Part shown: positions 52,345 to 61,975 of the stretch, piece by piece
Position numbering within the stretch: the stretch's first letter is position 1
How the letters are laid out: each line of letters begins with the position of its first letter
Source of the DNA: Armatimonadota bacterium
GTDB lineage: Bacteria; Armatimonadota; SYMT01
Direction: 5' to 3'
Assembly (NCBI GenBank): GCA_041690135.1
Contig: JAWLHY010000001.1
Span: 864,001 to 928,000, forward strand
Length of the DNA: 64,000 nt
Position numbers and translations under genes: made by a program
Notes under the pieces: model-generated
Seen by the model: the letters and a program-made list of their open reading frames with translations, nothing else
Told to the model about the DNA's origin: nothing
Databases searched by the model: none

Positions 52345-53178
52345 TTACTTTTTGAGCTCCTCTGCTCGAATGAGATGGACATCGAAGACCAGGGTCGCGT
52401 TGGGCGGGATCGGCCCCCCCGGCGTCCCGGAATCCCCGTAACCCAGCTTGGCGGGAATGACGAGCTGGCGCTTCTCGCCCGGCTTCATTCCCTGCACCCC
52501 CTCGTCCCAGCCCGGAATCACCTGGCCTTGCCCGAGAGGGAATACAAAAGACTGCCCGCGGTCGATCGAGCTGTCGAATTTCTTGCCGTTGGTAAGCCAA
52601 CCCGTGTAGTGGACGGTGACAAGTTGCCCCTTCTTGGCGGCCTCACCCTTGCCCTCCGTCAGCACAGAGTACTTCAGGCCGCTCTTCGTGGTCTTCAGGT
52701 CCTTCTCGGCCACTTTGGCCGGTTTCTCGGCCGGCTCGAAAGTACCGACGATCTCGACCATCTCCACCTCGAACGTGAGGGTACTGTTGGCGGGGATCAA
52801 GCCGCCTCCGATCTCACGGTCACCGTAGGCGAGCTTGGGCGGGATGATCAATTGGCGCTTCTCGCCGGCCGTCATGCCCTGGAGACCTTCATCCCAGCCC
52901 GGAATGACCAGCCCGCGGCCCACGATCAATTCGAACGGGCGCTTGCGGCGGTGGGAGCTGTCGAACTCTTTGCCGCTATCCAGCCAACCGGTGTAATGCA
53001 CCAGCACCTGCTGGTTCTTCGCTACGGCCGGCCCGCTTCCGGGCTTCAACACCGCATATTTCAGGCCGCTTTCGGTGGTCTTCACGTTTTTCGCGTCTAC
53101 CTTGACCGGCTCCGCCCAGGCGGCCCCGGCGATCAGGAGCGCGGCCCCGATGAGCGGCGCTCGAACTGTTCGGATCAT
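52345..53178 (-). CDS. Secreted double-domain FKBP-type peptidyl-prolyl isomerase
   Basis: Signal peptide from MIRTVRA; two FKBP domains. Confidence 0.92.
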   Translation of the reverse strand: MIRTVRAPLIGAALLIAGAAWAEPVKVDAKNVKTTESGLKYAVLKPGSGPAVAKNQQVLVHYTGWLDSGKEFDSSHRRKRPFELIVGRGLVIPGWDEGLQGMTAGEKRQLIIPPKLAYGDREIGGGLIPANSTLTFEVEMVEIVGTFEPAEKPAKVAEKDLKTTKSGLKYSVLTEGKGEAAKKGQLVTVHYTGWLTNGKKFDSSIDRGQSFVFPLGQGQVIPGWDEGVQGMKPGEKRQLVIPAKLGYGDSGTPGGPIPPNATLVFDVHLIRAEELKK

Positions 53179-53403
53179 CTGCAGTCTCCCGGCATTGCCC
53201 CGGATCCGGCCGCGGGCAGAAATGGGGTTGCGTTGGACAATTATGTTGCCTTTGGTGGCCTTCTGCCCGCACCTTCTACCGCTTCGGGACCCGCGATGGT
53301 TCCATTTCGCGCGTTTGGCTCCGGAGGTCAGGCAGGAACCCGCTTCTTTCCCGGAGTATGGTTGAGGGGCGATGCTCCGGGAACCTGCAACGAAGGGATG
53401 AGA

Positions 53404-54366
53404 ATGAAAGCGATCCGTGTGCAAGAATTTGGCGCTCCCGCCGTGATGCGGCTGGAAGAAGTAGCGGACCCGCAGCCCGGCGCCGGACAGGTGCTGGTAC
53501 GCGTGAAGGCAGCCGGAGTCAACCCGGTCGATACCTACATCCGCTCCGGCATCTACGCCAACCGCCCACCGCTCCCCTATACGCCCGGGTCGGATGCCGC
53601 GGGAGTGGTGGAAGCCGTGGGGGAAGGAGTCACCGCGTTTGCTCCTGGCGACCGGGTGTATACTTCCGGCACTCTCAGCGGGGCTTACGCGGAGCTCGCC
53701 CTGTGCAGCGAGGCGCAGTTGCACACGCTGCCGGAAAGGGTTTCCTTTGAGCAGGGCGCCGGCGTGAACGTACCCTACGCCACGGCCTACCGCTCGCTCT
53801 TCTATCGGGCGCACGCGCAGCCGAATGAAACCGTCCTGGTGCATGGGGCTTCCGGCGGGGTGGGCATCGCCGCTGTCCAGATCGCGGTCGCGCATGGCAT
53901 GTGGGTCTTCGGAACGGCCAGCTCGGAGCGCGGACAGGAGCTGGTCCGCGCCCAGGGCGCCCAACACGTTCTCGACCACAGCGATCCGGGATACCTCCAG
54001 CAGGTTCTGGACCTGACCGGGGGCCAGGGGGTGGATCTGATCCTGGAGATGCTCGCGAACGTAAATCTGGGGAAGGACCTGACGGTCCTGGCGAAAGGCG
54101 GACGGGTGGTCGTTATCGGCTCCCGCGGCACCGTCGAGATCAACCCGCGAGATGTGATGGCACGGGACGCCGCGATCCTGGGAATGCTCCTGTTCAACGC
54201 GAGCGAGAAGGAACTGGCCGCCATCCATGCCGCCCTGGTCGCGGGTCTCGCCAACGGCTCGCTCAATCCGATTGTGGGAGAGGAGATCCCACTGGCAGAT
54301 GCCCCGCGGGCGCACGAAGCGGTGATGGCGTCCGGCGCCTACGGTAAGATCGTGCTGAAGCCTTGA
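53404..54366 (+). CDS. NADPH:quinone reductase (zeta-crystallin/MDR family)
   Basis: AGVNPVDTY, PYTPGSD, LVHGASGGVG, GKIVL. Confidence 0.92.
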   Translation: MKAIRVQEFGAPAVMRLEEVADPQPGAGQVLVRVKAAGVNPVDTYIRSGIYANRPPLPYTPGSDAAGVVEAVGEGVTAFAPGDRVYTSGTLSGAYAELALCSEAQLHTLPERVSFEQGAGVNVPYATAYRSLFYRAHAQPNETVLVHGASGGVGIAAVQIAVAHGMWVFGTASSERGQELVRAQGAQHVLDHSDPGYLQQVLDLTGGQGVDLILEMLANVNLGKDLTVLAKGGRVVVIGSRGTVEINPRDVMARDAAILGMLLFNASEKELAAIHAALVAGLANGSLNPIVGEEIPLADAPRAHEAVMASGAYGKIVLKP

Positions 54367-55791: not shown

Positions 55792-56997
55792 TCAATCTTC
55801 CGCCGGAGGCGTTTTCGCCTGCACGGTGAACCCACCCACGGCTACAGGCCCCGTGAGCGTGAGCACGGGATCCCCTTCGATCTGGAGGTAAGCCGTATCG
55901 GGGCTCAGCCGGCTATTTCCGTTGTCGATGATCGTAAGCGTGAAGGCTCGGCCACGCACCCGGTTAACGGTCGCGACACCTGTAATCACTGCCCGGTTTC
56001 CGTTGAAGACTTCCACCGACTGGATGCGGGTACTCCGCACGTGGAGCCGTGCCCGCGGGTCCAGGAAGACAAAACTTCCCACCGGCTTCTTCCGCAGCGA
56101 GTTCGCGCGCACGTTGAAGATCGCCCGGTTCTCGCCGACCTGCAGGATCGAGTTGCCCGCGACCAGGCCCGGGAAGCCCGCCTCGGCCACCAGTTGATCC
56201 GAAACAAACCAACCGCCCTGTCCGTTGGGCGTGAAAACGATCGTCAGCCCCTCCAGGTCGGAGTCCTCGGGAACGTCAGCATCGATGTCGAAGTGCTCAT
56301 ACACGGTGCCCTCCGTGCCCGTGTTGAAGTTCCGGTTCGCCGACAGATCGATCTCCGCCGGAATGGTCGGCTCACCTGCCGCTCTTACCTCTTTCACCGG
56401 TCCCCCGCCGGGAAGATCGCCCGGCGTCACCCCAACCAGGATGTCATCGCCTCCGGAAGGGGCGTCGACGGTGGAGATGAGCACTCGTCCGTCCTGCAGG
56501 ATCTGGATCTGGAAGGTGTTGATGATACTTTCGTCGTCATAGGTGGGCACCTGCTCCCAGGTGAACACCGCACGGTCCGGGAAGAGGCGGTAACGCACGG
56601 CACCGCCGTCCCGCGGGTCCAGGTCGTGCCAGGCGCCGGCGATGCGGGGGCCTTCCGTTACGAATTCGAACGGATCGCCGTCACAGCAATCGTCGTCGTC
56701 GTTGTCGCCCAGCCAGATGAACCCGTTGTCGGTGACCGTCACCTGGGTGTAGACCTGCCCCTGGAACGGAAAGTTGAAGCCCAGGTCGATGAGCGCTGTA
56801 TCGTCATCTCCGAACTCCAGGTTGGTGCCCGTGTCAACTTCATAGTACGGGGGCAAGGGCACCTTAACGCCGGCTTCCGCCCGGCGGGGCTGTACCGCAC
56901 CGCTAAAAACCAACCCACCGAGCGCCGCACAAAGCACGCCCGTACCCAGGGCGCGCTTCGCCCCGGAACGCATCCACGAAGTCCTCTTCAGCAACAT
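55792..56997 (-). CDS. Secreted protein with nidogen/NIDO-like domain and C-terminal beta domain
   Basis: Signal peptide (AEA); DDD..IDLGFNFPFQG..V.DNGFI..IAGAWHDLDP..FTWEQV..NTFQIQI. Confidence 0.7.
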   Translation of the reverse strand: MLLKRTSWMRSGAKRALGTGVLCAALGGLVFSGAVQPRRAEAGVKVPLPPYYEVDTGTNLEFGDDDTALIDLGFNFPFQGQVYTQVTVTDNGFIWLGDNDDDDCCDGDPFEFVTEGPRIAGAWHDLDPRDGGAVRYRLFPDRAVFTWEQVPTYDDESIINTFQIQILQDGRVLISTVDAPSGGDDILVGVTPGDLPGGGPVKEVRAAGEPTIPAEIDLSANRNFNTGTEGTVYEHFDIDADVPEDSDLEGLTIVFTPNGQGGWFVSDQLVAEAGFPGLVAGNSILQVGENRAIFNVRANSLRKKPVGSFVFLDPRARLHVRSTRIQSVEVFNGNRAVITGVATVNRVRGRAFTLTIIDNGNSRLSPDTAYLQIEGDPVLTLTGPVAVGGFTVQAKTPPAED

Positions 56998-57218
56998 CCG
57001 GAAAATCCTCGCGCACAGAGGTACCGCTTCTCCGGCACTCCCCTGGCAGTTACATCCAAGCGGGGTTTATCGACCACCAGTCAAAGATGACTTCTGGTCA
57101 ATAAGACCCTCGTTGTCTGCAGCCCTGGCGGCTGCCTCCTCTATCCTTATCGCGCTTCGAAGAGTTCCGTGTAGTTCTGCCAGGCAGCAACCGGCTGATT
57201 TCCACCCAAAGGGGGAAG

Positions 57219-58574
57219 CTAGCGGTCGAAGTACGGGTAGTCAACCAGCACCCGCCGCAGCTCTTCGGCCGTGGTGTGGCCTTCGCGGACGAGCTTACGC
57301 CCGGCGTCCGGAAGCGAGCCCGTCTCTCCGGGGAACAGAGCCGCTCCCAGCAACCCGGTTGCCTCACCCGCCGTGATCTTTTTCCGCACTTCCTCGTCCA
57401 CTTCGACCATTTCATAGAAAGGGAGACGACCGTGATATCCGCTACCGGAGCAGGCGTCGCAGCCCGCACCCCGCAAGAAGGCCCCCCCACCCGGTTCCAG
57501 CCCCACCGATTGGAGCAACGCTGAGTCCGGGTCGTACTCGACGCGGCACTGCCGGCACGAGTGCCGGACCAGGCGCATGCCAATCAGCCCTATCAGTACC
57601 GATCCCAGTTGAAACCGGCTGGCGCCTGCTTCGCGGAGTTGTTCGAGGATTTGTAAAGCACTGGCGGCGGTCATCTGAGTCAGCACCAGATGTCCCGTGA
57701 CTGAAGTGCGAATCGCCAGGTCCAGGGTCTCCCGGTCCGGCAGATCCCCCACGAAGACCACATCCGGGTCGCAGCCCCGAAGCAGGTGGCGGAGCGCGGC
57801 GGCGAAGGAGAGGCCGCGGTCAACATCAACCTGGGTTTGCGAGAGCCCTTCCAGCCGGTAAGCGACCCGTTCCTCCAGAGTCATCAAGTTGGCTCCGCCC
57901 GCTTCCCGGTCCAGGAGGTGCTGGAGGATTCCGTAGATCAAGGTTGTCTTGCCGCTCCCGACGGGCCCCCCTACAACCAGGAGCCCATTCGGTTGCCGAA
58001 GAATCCGGTACAGCGTTTCGGTTTGACGAGGCGAAAGGTGCATCCGCTCCAACGGAGGAGGGCGCCTCTCAACCGGGACCATCCCGAGCGTCAGGTGCTC
58101 GCCGAAGACGGTAGGCATCACGGCCAAGCGCACGTCGTACTCTCCAGCCTGGTGAGGAACGATGAATCTTCCGGCTTGCGGTAGATCATGCCGCTCCAGG
58201 TCGCACTGAGCCAGCAGTTTGAACCGGTCGACCACCGGCTTCCATTCGTTGCGGGAAAGGGATGCGAAAGGCTCCAGGCGGCCGTCGATCCGGAAGGAGA
58301 TAGCAAGCTCGGACCGGCGGGGCGCCAGGTGGATATCCGTAGCTCCCTGCTGAAGGGCGTCCTGGAGGAGCGAGTGGGCCAACCGGACGATACTCGCTTC
58401 TCGGGCTCCTTCCAGCGTCTCCAGCACTTCCCGTTCCCGACGCACCTCCTCGCGTAGCCGGGGATCCGTGGTGAGCAGCCCTTCGAAGGCTTCCAGTTCG
58501 GCTCCCGCAAGCTCACCGCGAAAGAACGGCAGAATATTCTCTCGAGCCCATTCCGGATCAAGCTGGCGCTTCAT
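57219..58574 (-). CDS. GspE/PulE/PilB-family ATPase with anti-sigma-like N-terminal domain (degenerate active site)
   Basis: AAGGAG RBS, ATG at 58574; ATDIH..FRIDG, PQAGR, Walker A GPVGSGKTT, DPDVVFVGD, TGHLVL, two CxxC, TTAEELRRV. Confidence 0.88.
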   Translation of the reverse strand: MKRQLDPEWARENILPFFRGELAGAELEAFEGLLTTDPRLREEVRREREVLETLEGAREASIVRLAHSLLQDALQQGATDIHLAPRRSELAISFRIDGRLEPFASLSRNEWKPVVDRFKLLAQCDLERHDLPQAGRFIVPHQAGEYDVRLAVMPTVFGEHLTLGMVPVERRPPPLERMHLSPRQTETLYRILRQPNGLLVVGGPVGSGKTTLIYGILQHLLDREAGGANLMTLEERVAYRLEGLSQTQVDVDRGLSFAAALRHLLRGCDPDVVFVGDLPDRETLDLAIRTSVTGHLVLTQMTAASALQILEQLREAGASRFQLGSVLIGLIGMRLVRHSCRQCRVEYDPDSALLQSVGLEPGGGAFLRGAGCDACSGSGYHGRLPFYEMVEVDEEVRKKITAGEATGLLGAALFPGETGSLPDAGRKLVREGHTTAEELRRVLVDYPYFDR

Positions 58575-59142
58575 CTCCTTGATGTCCTTCCTCTGCATCC
58601 AGAGCATCCACGGCGCGCCGCAGCCGGCGGAGCGCTTCCGACATCCGCGACTTGACCGTCCCGAGCGGAATGCCGAGTTGCGCGGCGACCTCGGCATAGC
58701 TCATTTCTTCAAACTGACAGAGCTCAAAAACCACCCTGTACCGGGCGGGGAGCTCCGAGACCGCACTTAGCAGGTGATGGAGGCGGTCCCGGCCCAACGC
58801 AACGGCCTGCGGGTCCCGGGAAGCAAAGGCTGTTTCCGCCATTGCTTCCTCCAACCGGACCGGCGAAGGGTCCCGGCGGAACTTCTTCCGCTGGTTCCAC
58901 CAGAAGTGGCGGGCAATCTGAAACAAGTAAGCCGAGAAACTACCCGACGGTTCATAGCGCTCCCGGGTCCGCCACAGGCGAAATAGAGTTTCCTGGGTGT
59001 AGTCGTCCGCAAGAGACCGGTCGGCAAGCAAGGAAGCGAAGAACCGTTGGAGCGGTTCCCGGTGGCGGGCAGTGAGTTCGCGGAAGGCCGTTACGTCCCC
59101 CTCCCGGACTCGCAGCATCAGTTCGATGTCGGTTGGCTCCAT
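58558..59142 (-). CDS. ECF-family RNA polymerase sigma factor
   Basis: GDVTAFREL, ADDYTQETLFRLW, FSAYLFQIA, LPARYR..MSYAEVA..IPLGTVKSRM. Confidence 0.93.
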   Translation of the reverse strand: MEPTDIELMLRVREGDVTAFRELTARHREPLQRFFASLLADRSLADDYTQETLFRLWRTRERYEPSGSFSAYLFQIARHFWWNQRKKFRRDPSPVRLEEAMAETAFASRDPQAVALGRDRLHHLLSAVSELPARYRVVFELCQFEEMSYAEVAAQLGIPLGTVKSRMSEALRRLRRAVDALDAEEGHQGDEAPA

Positions 59143-59170
59143 GCGTGGCGATCCCGTTCCCTCATGCTCC

Positions 59171-59196
59171 TTAGTTCTCGCCCGCACGCAAAGTTC
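59171..59196 (-). promoter_or_regulatory. Candidate ECF-type (autoregulatory) promoter
   Basis: Minus strand GAACTT-15-ACTAA about 30 nt upstream of the ECF start; resembles SigmaE-type GAACTT..TCTAA. Confidence 0.35.
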
Positions 59197-59216: not shown

Positions 59217-60026
59217 TTGAGAAAGGCGTACCTCTTGCCTGCCAATTCCTCGAAAGTCGTGTTGATCACTGGCGCCAGCAGCGGGCTGGGGGCCGCCGCT
59301 GCCCAGGCGTGTGCCGCCGCCGGGCATCGCGTCGTGCTGGCCGCCCGCCGCATGGATCGTCTCCAACAGGTTGCCGATGCCATTGGCCGCTCCGAAAATG
59401 TCTTGCTGATTCCCACCGACATCCGCAGTCTCGAGAGCATTCAAGCCATGGTGCGGATTGCCGAGGAGCGGTTCGGACAGATCGACGTCCTGGTAGCCAA
59501 CGCCGGGGTCGGTAAGTGGGAGCCGCTACACGATAGCAACGAGGACACGCTCCTCTGGCAGATGGACGTAAACGTGTTGGGCGTGGTCCGGTGTGCCCGC
59601 GAGGTGCTGCCAGGAATGCTCCAGCGGAAGAGCGGACACATCATCACCGTCGCCTCCGTAGCCGGAGAGATCCCCTCCGCGGGGACTTCCATCTACTCGG
59701 CGACCAAGGCCGCGGTGATTGGATTTTCCGAGGGACTGCGCCGCGAGGTGGAAGCGTCCGGCGTCCGGGTCACCTGCATTCAGCCCGGGTTCATTCAGAG
59801 CGAGATGACCGAGGGGAACCCTTTCCCAATGCCGCCGGCTTCCGTCGTAGGGGATCTCGTGGTGCGGCTCATCCGGCGGCCGGTACGACGCGCGGTGGTC
59901 CCCCGCTGGTATGGCGCCGGGATCTGGCTCAACCGTTTTCTCCCGGCCTGGATCGATCTCATCGCCTGGAGCATGCATCAGAGGATCGCCGATCATGCTA
60001 AGGAACGTGGCGCTTCCGAGTCGTAG
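59217..60026 (+). CDS. SDR family oxidoreductase
   Basis: TGASSGLG, ANAG, YSATK. Confidence 0.9.
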   Translation: MRKAYLLPANSSKVVLITGASSGLGAAAAQACAAAGHRVVLAARRMDRLQQVADAIGRSENVLLIPTDIRSLESIQAMVRIAEERFGQIDVLVANAGVGKWEPLHDSNEDTLLWQMDVNVLGVVRCAREVLPGMLQRKSGHIITVASVAGEIPSAGTSIYSATKAAVIGFSEGLRREVEASGVRVTCIQPGFIQSEMTEGNPFPMPPASVVGDLVVRLIRRPVRRAVVPRWYGAGIWLNRFLPAWIDLIAWSMHQRIADHAKERGASES

Positions 60027-60157: not shown

Positions 60158-61975
60158 GTGGACATAAGAAGAGCGGACAACCCGGATAGGAAGGACGGCA
60201 GGGTCACCCTTGGGGCCTCGGGCCTAGAAGGGTGCCGGCTCCGGCAACCGTGGCTCAAGACACTGGGCGCCCTTGCCTGGGGGCTCATGCTCTCCGGATG
60301 CGGAAAAGGGCTGCCTGGTTCGCCGCCTTCCTCCCCCCTTCGCTTCACCGCCCTCGGTCCCGAGACGGGGGTTACCTTTCGGCACGATGCCGGCGCGGAC
60401 GGATCGCAGCAGCTCCATCAACAGTTGGGGGGAGGGTGCGCCGTCTTCGATTTCAATAACGACGGCTGGCTCGATCTCTACTTCGTGCAGGGTGCCCCAC
60501 CCACCGGAGATGGCCAGGACCCCCGTTGGAGCAACCGCCTCTATCAGGGCGGCCCTGGGTGGCGATTCACGGATGTCACGGATCGGGCCGGGGTTGCGGG
60601 CCGCATTGGTACCGGCAAATCCTTTGGCGTTGGCTGTGCCGTCGGCGACTGGGATCGGGACGGCGATGAGGATCTACTCGTCACCACGCGAGACGGCATC
60701 CTCTTCTATGGCAATCAGGGTGACGGTACGTTCCGTGACGAGAGCGTGAATGCCGGGCTGCCGCAAGAGGGGTTCTGGACGAGTGCCACCTTCCTGGACT
60801 TTGACCGCGACGGCTGGCTGGATCTCTACCTCTGCCGGTACACGCCGCCCGGAGCAAAGACCAACACTCCGCCGGCCTCCGCCGGTTCCAAGCCGACTCC
60901 GGATTCGGAAAATCCGGCGCGGACGACCTCACGGCTCTACCGCAATGTGGGGGGGCAGGTGTTTCGGGACGTTACCGCGGAGGCCGGCACGCTGGAGCCG
61001 AACAGTCACGCCCTGGGGGTCCTGGCCAGTGACCTTGACGGAGACGGTTGGCCCGACCTTTGCGTCACCAACGACGGAGTGCGCAACTTCCTCTTCCGCA
61101 ATGACCGTGGGGTCTTTCTGGAACGGGGGCGTGATGCGGGCGTGGCGGTGGACGAGTCGGGGGTGGCCCGTCCCAGCCGGGGCCTTTGCGGAGCCGACGT
61201 TAACGGTGATCTGGCTCCCGACCTGTTTTTGACTACCGGAGAACGCCATCCTAACTTACTCTTCCTCGGCGGGAATGATCTAACCCTAAAGGAAGGCGCG
61301 GCTGCGGCGGGACTGTCGCCCGACACCTCCATGTCCGCGTGGGGCTCCGCTTTCGCCGACTTCGATCTCGACGGTCGGACCGATCTGGTGGTGCTGGGAG
61401 GTGCGTCCCAGCAAGCGGTTGGCGCGGGTTCGGCAGCGGGCGGTGCGCAGCGTCCCCGGCTCTACCGGGGTGAGGGCGGCGGCATGTTCCGGTCGGCCGG
61501 GGAACAGGCGGGGTCCTGGTTCCGGGAAGCGCACGATGGGCGCGGGATCGCAACCGGTGACCTGGATCAGGATGGGGACCTGGACCTGGTCGTAACGCGT
61601 CTGAACGGTACGCCGGTCCTGCTTCGCAACGACCACCGAGCGAAGAACCACTGGCTCCAGCTACGCCTAGTGGGGACCGAGAGCAATCTCTCCGGGATCG
61701 GGGCTCGGGTGACGGCTATCGTGGATGGCCAGCCACGCATGGCAGAGGCCCGCTCCGGGGCCGGCTATCTCTGCGCGCAGAGCCCTACCGTCGCTTTCGG
61801 CCTGGGCACTGCGCAGGCCCTGGACGGTCTGGAAGTTCGCTGGCCCTCCGGGGCGGTGGACGCGCTTCCGCCCGTGCTCGGCGACCGGGTCATCATCCTG
61901 AAGGAAGGCGGCGACCTTCTGCCCACTCCGACCTCTTCTGCAGAACCCCAGGCACGTGGCAGTCTGAAGCGCTAG
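60158..61975 (+). CDS. CRTAC1/ASPIC-UnbV family protein with FG-GAP repeats
   Basis: Repeated DxDxDGxxDL motifs, NHWLQLRLVG..GIGARV, FGLG, EVRWPSG; LSGC lipobox-like; start uncertain. Confidence 0.88.
   Translation: MDIRRADNPDRKDGRVTLGASGLEGCRLRQPWLKTLGALAWGLMLSGCGKGLPGSPPSSPLRFTALGPETGVTFRHDAGADGSQQLHQQLGGGCAVFDFNNDGWLDLYFVQGAPPTGDGQDPRWSNRLYQGGPGWRFTDVTDRAGVAGRIGTGKSFGVGCAVGDWDRDGDEDLLVTTRDGILFYGNQGDGTFRDESVNAGLPQEGFWTSATFLDFDRDGWLDLYLCRYTPPGAKTNTPPASAGSKPTPDSENPARTTSRLYRNVGGQVFRDVTAEAGTLEPNSHALGVLASDLDGDGWPDLCVTNDGVRNFLFRNDRGVFLERGRDAGVAVDESGVARPSRGLCGADVNGDLAPDLFLTTGERHPNLLFLGGNDLTLKEGAAAAGLSPDTSMSAWGSAFADFDLDGRTDLVVLGGASQQAVGAGSAAGGAQRPRLYRGEGGGMFRSAGEQAGSWFREAHDGRGIATGDLDQDGDLDLVVTRLNGTPVLLRNDHRAKNHWLQLRLVGTESNLSGIGARVTAIVDGQPRMAEARSGAGYLCAQSPTVAFGLGTAQALDGLEVRWPSGAVDALPPVLGDRVIILKEGGDLLPTPTSSAEPQARGSLKR

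Follow-up and report, generated by a model that had tools for sequence, protein, structure and literature searches.

A group 4 ECF sigma factor paired with a predicted anti-sigma domain on a GspE/PilB-type ATPase core in an Armatimonadota bacterium

The stretch of DNA analysed here (the window) comprises 64,000 nucleotides (nt) from an Armatimonadota bacterium, positions 864,001 to 928,000 of contig JAWLHY010000001.1 (assembly GCA_041690135.1); the host genome amounts to 9.1 Mb in 25 contigs. On the reverse strand of the window lie two overlapping genes, the first encoding an extracytoplasmic function (ECF) sigma factor and the second a protein in which a putative class I anti-sigma domain (ASD; ASDI for those of class I) is fused to the core of a GspE/PilB-like secretion ATPase. 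Among alternative sigma factors the ECF proteins are the most numerous, and what many of their groups sense is obscure. The features of the locus are listed below, with positions given in the window and residues in the fusion protein.

59171..59196, reverse strand: ECF-type promoter-like site GAACTTTGCGTGCGGGCGAGAACTAA, with a -35-like GAACTTT and a -10-like AACTAA, 54 nt before the ECF ATG
58558..59142, reverse strand: ECF (group 4) sigma factor gene, 194 amino acids (aa) from ATG 59142 (Pfam and NCBIfam)
58558..58574, reverse strand: 17-nt overlap of the end of the ECF gene (stop codon TGA 58560-58558) with the start of the fusion gene (ATG 58574)
57219..58574, reverse strand: fusion gene (P0003), putative ASD on a GspE/PilB-like ATPase core, 451 aa
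58404..58574, reverse strand: putative class I ASD, a Zn-less derivative of zf-HC2, residues 1-57, three helices (7-18, 25-36 and from 38 onwards)
58065..58403, reverse strand: N2 domain, residues 58-170 (Pfam, AlphaFold2 (AF2), Foldseek and motif check)
57240..58037, reverse strand: C-terminal ATPase domain (CTD), residues 180-445 (Pfam T2SSE and Foldseek)
57942..57968, reverse strand: Walker A GPVGSGKTT, intact (motif check)
57858..57881, reverse strand: Asp box TLEERVAY, family consensus T-I/V-E-D-P-V-E-Y (motif check)
57726..57764, reverse strand: Walker B region DVVFVGDLPDRET, with Asp for the catalytic Glu and Pro for the Arg two residues further along
57666..57698, reverse strand: His box TGHLVLTQMTA, first His kept and second His replaced by Thr
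57450..57557, reverse strand: tetracysteine motif C340-x2-C343 ... C372-x2-C375, intact (CRQC, CDAC; motif check)

The upstream gene encodes a protein of about 190 aa that consists of sigma2 and sigma4 regions only, as is characteristic of ECF group 4. It matches Pfam Sigma70_r2 (4e-12) and r4_2 (5e-18), and scores 89.4 bits against the NCBIfam sigma70-ECF model, for which the cut-off is 42.9. A longer reading frame (58558..59187, reverse strand) begins at GTG 59187; because this codon falls within the promoter-like site, ATG 59142 is the likelier start, and it is also the one used in the protein-database entry P0124. A first-pass annotation of the window, made from the sequence alone, had reported that the ECF gene overlaps its neighbour by 17 nt, and the positions of the stop and start codons bear this out. 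The two genes are likely to be translationally coupled through the overlap.

The product of the second gene reads MKRQLDPEWARENILPFFRGELAGAELEAFEGLLTTDPRLREEVRREREVLETLEGA... and is then covered by Pfam T2SSE from residue 58 to residue 441 (256.5 bits). The AF2 model of the full protein has a mean predicted local distance difference test score (pLDDT) of 88.9, with helices at residues 7-18 and 25-36 followed by a long helix (38-75) that runs unbroken into the first helix of N2. For the ATPase part, Foldseek returned PilF as the best match (5oiu_B, E 4.5e-43, template modelling (TM) score 0.92, target-normalised), followed by PilB and GspE; the T2SSE domain (N2 plus CTD) and the fold are those of GspE/PilB ATPases. 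The highest 19-residue Kyte-Doolittle mean is 1.29 and therefore no transmembrane helix is predicted in the protein, in agreement with the initial observation that none separates the N-terminus from the ATPase.

In other respects the protein stands apart from the secretion motors. No Pfam match to N1/MshEN (PF05157) was found in it; most canonical ATPases among the matches listed carry this domain. Its scores lie below the curated equivalog cut-offs for GspE (TIGR02533, 302.6 against 630.25 bits) and for PilB (TIGR02538, 263.1 against 675.65 bits), and it ranks seventh among the 16 T2SSE matches of the genome, the six above it scoring 411-467 bits. A T2SSF (PilC/GspF) gene lies within 3 kb of each of the genome's four best-scoring canonical ATPases. 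The window locus lacks this linkage: no T2SSF match occurs anywhere in the window and all 13 in the genome lie elsewhere, which extends the earlier remark that no pilC/gspF gene is adjacent.

Residues 1-57, modelled by AF2 at pLDDT 84-96, contain neither Cys nor His, and the Zn-ligand pattern of ASDs (C/H ... H-x3-C-x2-C) is missing from the window protein. Their identity emerges from comparison with relatives. The Pfam zf-HC2 model recognises 12 of the 14 family N-termini (best E 6.4e-12), and C3, H29, C33 and C36 are invariant among those of the Zn type (alignment A5). The decisive test was an hhalign comparison of the Zn-less subfamily (A4) with the Zn-type N-termini (A5), which aligned over 56 columns (probability 97.9%, E 6e-13), placing L33, D37 and L40 of the window protein opposite the H/C/C of its Zn-type relatives. 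A profile built from 14 N-termini matched the Mycobacterium tuberculosis anti-sigma factor RslA (3hug_B) at E 2.1e-5, with DdvA and RsiW lower in the match list, and one Zn-type member matches NCBIfam antisig_RsrA (6e-6). When residues 1-75 were modelled in isolation (pLDDT 90.5), the top Foldseek rows were RsiW, RseA, RslA and MucA chains (E 2-7, TM 0.5-0.67), in weak agreement with an anti-sigma identity.

Thus, profile comparison with bona fide zf-HC2 domains establishes homology, and the gene has the co-directional adjacency to an ECF gene that is expected of an anti-sigma gene. The Zn-less state is compatible with membership of the ASDIs because about 44% of those known are Zn-less, a figure taken from PMC7406223. 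Sequence comparison therefore supports the proposal of a class I anti-sigma domain stripped of its Zn ligands at this N-terminus: the orthologues keep C..H-x3-C-x2-C, and the homology found is to zf-HC2, not to an MshEN/N1E domain.

Close relatives of the whole protein are few. Among 5.8 billion clustered proteins, only four full-length relatives exceed 40% identity (P0005, 79%; P0006, P0007 and P0008, 44-46%), all of them 447-451 aa long; the next matches are ordinary GspE/PilB proteins at 36% identity or less, most with MshEN/N1. Scanning metagenome contigs with subclade peptide patterns added one further member (L025, 42%), the rest being ordinary GspE/PilB at 30-37%, and a pattern scan of 185,579 species genomes added none. 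A whole-protein search of the 60 nearest genomes, 6 of them from the same family, gave no close orthologue (best 39%); remoter fusion genes were masked there by ordinary ATPases and were recognised later. The six members share the N-terminal pattern L.(F/Y)(L/F)(K/R)GE(L/M)...E...FE..L.....LR.E..R.R..L..(L/M)E. A sequencing-run search gave shares of only 0.05-0.08, in three metagenome runs, and no RNA run was among those listed.

Searches that start from the N-terminus reach further. A 75-residue N-terminal profile gave 153 matches below E 1e-10 among 1.84 billion cluster representatives, and the ATPase core was present in 58 of the 149 best new matches; the family numbers at least 58 clusters at 50% identity. 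With a Zn-type query, at least 55 clusters (90% identity) combine zf-HC2 with T2SSE among the 120 matches listed. Four of these carry a source name, in each case GspE/PilB-like, and none among the matches listed is named as an anti-sigma factor.

The pairing with an ECF gene was examined in a phylum sample of 301 genomes. ECF orthologues (42-54% identity, E<1e-35) occur in 13 of them, the window's own included, and in all 12 others the adjacent gene encodes a protein of 432-469 aa with a short N-terminal domain in front of a T2SSE core. Nine of these begin M(K/N/Q/D)C...R....AYLK.EL........EHL..C..C..EL, a complete zinc anti-sigma motif; the remaining three (G028, G225 and G260) resemble the window protein in having other residues at the Zn-ligand positions. 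Because these loci were found via the ECF gene, adjacency among them is not an independent test, and ECF-independent loci were sought by ATPase matches that reach the N-terminus and by the N-terminal profile. The first route led to six loci, of which five hold ASD-ATPase genes, each with an ECF gene directly upstream, and the sixth an ordinary 568-aa ATPase with neither ASD nor ECF. The second, applied to the 301 genomes, gave 12 further candidates: nine ASD-ATPase genes, again all with ECF directly upstream, and three other anti-sigma proteins without an ATPase domain.

In total, 27 fusion loci were found in 26 of the 301 genomes (two in G036), 14 of them without the ECF as query, and an ECF gene adjoins the fusion gene at every one, upstream in 26 and downstream in G210. 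This adjacency and the E value of the N-terminal alignment exceed what chance would give. In the 12 same-order pairs for which the gap between ECF stop and fusion start was measured, it is -17, -11, -4, -4, -4, -1, 0, 1, 2, 78, 79 and 371 nt (the last in G260), so that start and stop overlap or lie no more than 2 nt apart in nine. All-against-all clustering of the open reading frames (ORFs) at 13 loci found only the ECF and fusion genes to be conserved. The closest relatives of the window's ECF (P0125, 74%) and ATPase (P0005, 79%) come from the same source, both on an 11498-nt contig, and their genes are presumably neighbours. ECF and ATPase distances are correlated (Mantel r 0.73, with none of 5000 permutations as high), which speaks of co-inheritance only, because the two genes share a species tree. 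Complex prediction from the ECF alignment (A6) and the ASD alignment (A3) gave a score of 0.01, which counts neither for nor against binding. The ECF and ASD-ATPase pair is supported as a conserved module; a search for such conserved pairs had been put forward at the outset as a check.

The catalytic motifs of the window protein present a mixed picture. Walker A and both CxxC pairs were originally described as intact, and the P-loop and the tetracysteine of GspE/PilB ATPases are indeed there. The other strings that had been singled out as off consensus are likewise present as quoted. The Walker B core reads VGDLPDRET, and VGDLPD and LVLTQMTA stand where GE(I/M)RD and LVLSTLHT are found in five ordinary GspE/PilB proteins used as comparators, all five of which are canonical at each checked position; the catalytic Glu and the full pair of His-box His residues are thus absent from the window protein. 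A strand of N2 reads GEHLTLGM, and the family has R at the position of G164.

These changes recur among the relatives. In the six-member subclade, Walker B reads VG(D/H)LPD(R/Q)ET, with the catalytic Glu replaced in all six (Asp in five, His in one), and the His box reads TGHLVL(TQ/AH).., without a His at the second canonical position in any. The Asp box has E-E in five of the six, and the N2 arginine strand has Gly in three and Arg in three. Since the altered motifs are common to the six members, they are features of the subfamily and not private decay; the first-pass annotation had left this point to be settled by comparison. It was conceivable that the gene is a functionless, decaying duplicate of a GspE/PilB gene whose resemblance to anti-sigma factors is fortuitous, and the several changed catalytic positions and a T2SSE score of 256 bits, against 411-467 for the six best paralogues, are what such a duplicate might display. 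This explanation is strongly disfavoured and we give it very little credence: the 451-aa frame is intact and confidently modelled, VGDLPD and LVLTQ are kept among members only 42-46% identical, the module recurs in 26 genomes of the phylum sample, and the N-terminal alignment reaches the E value of 6e-13 reported above.

Across 49 non-redundant fusion proteins (4 exact duplicates dropped), Walker A is intact in 38, the E-D of the Asp box in 34, the Walker B Glu in 28, the first His of the His box in 42 and the second in 28; all six checked catalytic positions are canonical in 15. The CTD tetracysteine is kept in 44 of the 49, and H-x3-C-x2-C of the ASD in 31. The review PMC11656802 states that all PilB-like extension ATPases have the catalytic glutamate; set against this rule, its repeated loss in the fusion family argues for different constraints, either relaxed or altered.

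The 15 members with a fully canonical site could be taken to mean that the protein is still a working motor ATPase, in which the N-terminal helices serve as a docking element in place of N1 and the ECF factor is co-regulated without being bound. The PilB/PilF type of fold and the PilB/GspE-like names given to family members in source annotations fit this. It is nonetheless improbable. The N-terminus is homologous to zf-HC2 anti-sigma domains and not to N1/MshEN, the ECF gene is adjacent at all 27 loci with frequent start/stop overlap, genes for T2SSF proteins, pilins or secretins are not conserved in the vicinity, and the catalytic Glu is lost in 21 of the 49 family members and in all six of the window subclade.

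A quick IQ-TREE maximum-likelihood tree of the ATPase part (50 rows; 8 dropped, namely 4 duplicates, 3 partial sequences and P0302) places 17 of the 18 Zn-less members in one clade, nested among Zn-type members (Shimodaira-Hasegawa-like approximate likelihood ratio test (SH-aLRT) 90). The window protein falls in a nine-member subclade (SH-aLRT 95), most members of which have Asp for the catalytic Glu, and in the same tree this Glu has been lost several further times in Zn-type lineages.

Another possibility is a redox or zinc-thiol switch of the RsrA-like zinc-binding anti-sigma (ZAS) kind, whereby sigma is set free once the ASD zinc site is oxidised and the ATPase is a passive scaffold. The retention of H-x3-C-x2-C in 31 of 49 members and the match of one member to the RsrA model agree with it, as does the enrichment of soluble ASDs in Zn motifs recorded in PMC7406223. 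Such a switch is excluded for the window protein and the 17-member Zn-less clade because residues 1-57 (of the window protein) contain no Cys or His, and as an account of the module it is the least credible of those considered; it may nonetheless operate in Zn-type relatives.

Individual loci and sequences vary. At three of the 12 loci first examined, the gene immediately after the fusion gene is for a second ATPase. In G086 (L148:5438-6598, reverse strand) it encodes a bare N2+CTD core of 387 aa, and in G258 (L149:1-1593, reverse strand) and G036 (L145:7857-10226, forward strand) T2SSF (PilC-type) and T2SSE domains occur in one ORF; these second ATPases could be partner subunits. G036 has two separate ECF and ASD-ATPase pairs, on contigs C432 (L145) and C278 (L158), and in the C432 copy the Walker B region is strongly degenerate (LLTHICGPEE) and GES stands for the first His-box TGH. 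In G083 (L168:2163-3472, reverse strand) the fusion gene is broken up: one ORF of 112 aa holds the ASD and another of 343 aa the ATPase, and the two frames overlap. The cause is a frameshift, an assembly error or pseudogene formation. P0266 (471 aa, a truncated representative) carries two Clp_N domains together with zf-HC2 and T2SSE, which suggests either additional N-terminal domains in the family or a wrong gene start. P0302 (634 aa), with Pfam matches to Sigma70_r2, zf-HC2 and T2SSE, was considered as a sigma-ASD-ATPase triple fusion and rejected; the stretch corresponding to sigma region 4 looks out of frame and Walker A is degenerate. Probably adjacent genes were called as one by read-through, or the gene is a pseudogene.

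The promoter-like site upstream of the ECF gene had been picked out earlier as GAACTT..ACTAA, and it was located at 59196-59171 on the reverse strand. The element GAAC[CTA][CTA]T occurs on the coding strand, no more than 200 nt ahead of the ECF start, at 18 of 25 loci; the reverse strand has it at one of 25, and 500 shuffles averaged 1.65 (maximum 7). At Zn-type loci it is followed, some 16 nt on, by a CGTT(C/A)-like or (G/C)ATTC-like sequence, and in the Zn-less clade by AAC(T/C)TA or GACCT; GAACTTTGCGTGCGGGCGAGAACTAA in the window matches the pattern of its clade. The -10-like element is thus clade-specific in the ECF upstream regions (L143-L169), differing between Zn-type and Zn-less loci, and promoter specificity may have diverged jointly with the anti-sigma domain. 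Autoregulated ECF operons usually carry a signature of this GAAC type, and a promoter function is what its sequence and position suggest. Scanning the 9.1-Mb genome for further targets with two clade-derived promoter patterns gave four hits and one hit, with nothing convincing apart from the ECF gene's own site.

Taken together, the evidence suggests that the two proteins very probably form a true sigma/anti-sigma pair. The fuller explanation, a cognate ECF/cytoplasmic anti-sigma pair in which a repurposed ATPase core acts as a nucleotide- or conformation-dependent switch, is probably correct. According to this explanation, a Zn-less, three-helix ASD derived from zf-HC2 would have replaced the N1 domain of a GspE/PilB-type ATPase and sit directly on N2 and the CTD. 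The ASD would sequester the ECF factor, as its homology and the strict gene pairing suggest. The ATPase core would be the input module, presumably still ring-forming, as the P-loop and the Zn-cysteine motif are kept. Since the catalytic Glu and the Arg close to it are gone, as are the second His-box His and one Arg of N2, the core would probably bind nucleotide and hydrolyse it poorly; it is the combination of a kept P-loop with lost catalytic residues that leads to the view that the window protein binds nucleotide with slow or no turnover. Because in the model the last helix of the ASD is continuous with the first helix of N2, the surface that binds sigma could become exposed or hidden as N2 opens and closes against the CTD. 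Once freed, the sigma factor would transcribe its own operon from GAACTTT-N13-AACTAA, together with other targets. The homology of the domains, the pairing of the genes, the state of the motifs and the conservation of the promoter element are observations; sigma binding, oligomerisation, weak hydrolysis and the kind of signal are what we infer.

That the signal is a nucleotide or ring state is a tentative proposal, worth entertaining at somewhat less than even chances; docking, whether the partner is a pilus or secretion machine or another ATPase, is an unlikelier source. A more specific form of the scheme, held with similar reserve, is a ring-forming pseudo-motor that bears one ASD per subunit, stores several sigmas and releases them jointly on a change in nucleotide or docking state, which would constitute a new class of ECF input. 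The first-pass annotation had envisaged a soluble anti-sigma factor that uses a secretion-ATPase module as its sensor. The ASD homology, the conserved pair and the shared substitutions have strengthened the anti-sigma part of that idea, and the sensing role is carried forward here as the conjecture just described.

Docking could also be the whole of the input. In that case the same sigma/anti-sigma pair would report machine occupancy: the core would dock on a PilC/PilM-type platform or mix into rings with a true PilB/GspE paralogue, and the assembly or activity of pilus or secretion machines would decide if sigma is kept bound or let go. This is the pilus-status option of the first-pass annotation. 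The logic is analogous to that of FlgM and sigma-28. With 16 T2SSE and 13 T2SSF matches the genome offers many possible partner machines, the N2+CTD fold has been retained along with the tetracysteine motif, and the second ATPase gene directly after the fusion gene at three of 12 loci hints at docking. Conversely, no platform or second ATPase gene is linked to the pair in the window or at most loci, where only the ECF and fusion genes are conserved. The N1 domain tethers GspE to GspL, and this domain is missing from the fusion protein. On balance machine occupancy appears an unlikely explanation.

Several observations weigh against a Zn-less ASD on a nucleotide-dependent switch. The window N-terminus alone matches no Pfam family at E<=0.1, the zf-HC2 model (PF13490) included; a search of the PDB with the six-member Zn-less profile alone gave no meaningful anti-sigma match (RslA at E 1.5), and Foldseek with the isolated N-terminal model returned nothing at E<=0.001. 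A class I ASD usually has a fourth helix that contacts sigma region 2, and here its position is occupied by a helix of N2. The module is absent from the six genomes that belong to the same taxonomic family. At L025, on a short metagenome contig, there is no ECF in the 185 nt upstream, which contain stops in all three frames; the contig ends there, and an ECF gene may lie farther off, given the 371-nt gap in G260. Regulon prediction gave nothing beyond the ECF gene's own site. As for the ATPase, some hydrolysis may persist with an Asp at the position of the catalytic Glu, and since 15 of 49 relatives have a fully canonical site, the family overall may need ATP turnover.

Comparison with known systems sets the favoured sigma/anti-sigma switch in context. 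Class I anti-sigma factors such as RslA (3hug), RsiW (5wuq) and RsrA have, by profile, the same three-helix N-terminal domain, and their genes, like the fusion gene, lie directly after their own ECF genes and overlap them. They differ in what the domain is attached to, a transmembrane helix with a periplasmic sensor or a small soluble tail instead of a secretion-ATPase core; moreover, the window protein lacks the Zn ligands, and the first N2 helix takes the place of the fourth helix. Zn-binding and Zn-less forms are mixed within ASDI groups, as PMC7406223 describes, just as they are in the fusion family. With GspE, PilB and PilF the fusion shares the N2+CTD fold (TM up to 0.92), Walker A, the tetracysteine and T2SSE. 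It differs from them in lacking N1/MshEN and an adjacent PilC/GspF gene and in scoring below the NCBIfam equivalog cut-offs, and the window protein also in the Glu to Asp and Arg to Pro changes and the loss of the second His-box His and one N2 Arg.

Two systems work in a comparable way: among the ATP-binding anti-sigma factors SpoIIAB and RsbW, the nucleotide state of SpoIIAB decides partner binding, and the secretion-coupled FlgM relays the state of a secretion machine to a sigma factor. They have unrelated folds (SpoIIAB/RsbW a GHKL kinase, FlgM a disordered, secreted protein), act on other sigma classes and have no homology to the fusion protein. A precedent is Myxococcus xanthus PilB, which PMC5544727 describes as a signalling protein for exopolysaccharide production in which the nucleotide state matters; there, on that account and that of PMC11656802, what governs a regulatory output is the nucleotide state or the conformation of the ATPase and not its work as a motor. 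M. xanthus PilB is, however, described as the genuine pilus motor that signals through the Dif pathway, with neither a sigma-binding domain nor an ECF partner.

No description of an anti-sigma and T2SSE/PilB fusion was found in full-text searches of the literature, although the supplementary fused-domain tables of PMC7826278 and PMC7406223 could hold one; this accords with the initial impression that the architecture had not been described. Precomputed Pfam annotations of public proteins already show the combination of zf-HC2 with T2SSE. What is new thus appears to be the recognition of the module and of its meaning, the proteins themselves being in the databases already.

The genes that flank the pair are ordinary and unrelated to the module (window 59217-60026 and 60158-61975, forward strand, and 52345-54366). 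Their products include a short-chain dehydrogenase, divergent from the ECF gene, an FG-GAP/ASPIC-UnbV repeat protein, a double-FKBP isomerase and a zinc-type alcohol dehydrogenase/quinone reductase. Downstream lies a gene (55792-56997, reverse strand) for a 401-aa protein whose N-terminus resembles a signal peptide by eye; it has a weak NIDO match (E 1.5e-4) and scores 35.9 bits against post-COAP-1 (below the cut-off of 40), and the gene is not conserved at other fusion loci. The 221-nt spacer upstream of it contains GAACTCTT (57160-57167, reverse strand), and no -10 element matching the clade spacing was found after this sequence in the spacer.

The pair appears to be an ECF/class I anti-sigma system with an unprecedented sensor domain, the core of a secretion ATPase. 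The 2021 reclassification of ECF factors (PMC7826278) reports soluble anti-sigma factors in 10 groups and considers that others probably exist. Soluble anti-sigma factors are under-described, and recruitment of a secretion or pilus ATPase core as a sensor would add an input type. The graded loss of catalytic residues across the family provides a natural series in which to follow how a motor becomes a switch. For annotators there is a warning, as these 'PilB/GspE-like' genes probably encode regulators and not secretion components. If the proposed mechanism is true, the status of cellular energy or of envelope machines would be coupled directly to transcription, and the family would represent an evolutionary series leading from an active ATPase with a Zn-type ASD to a non-hydrolysing switch with a Zn-less one.

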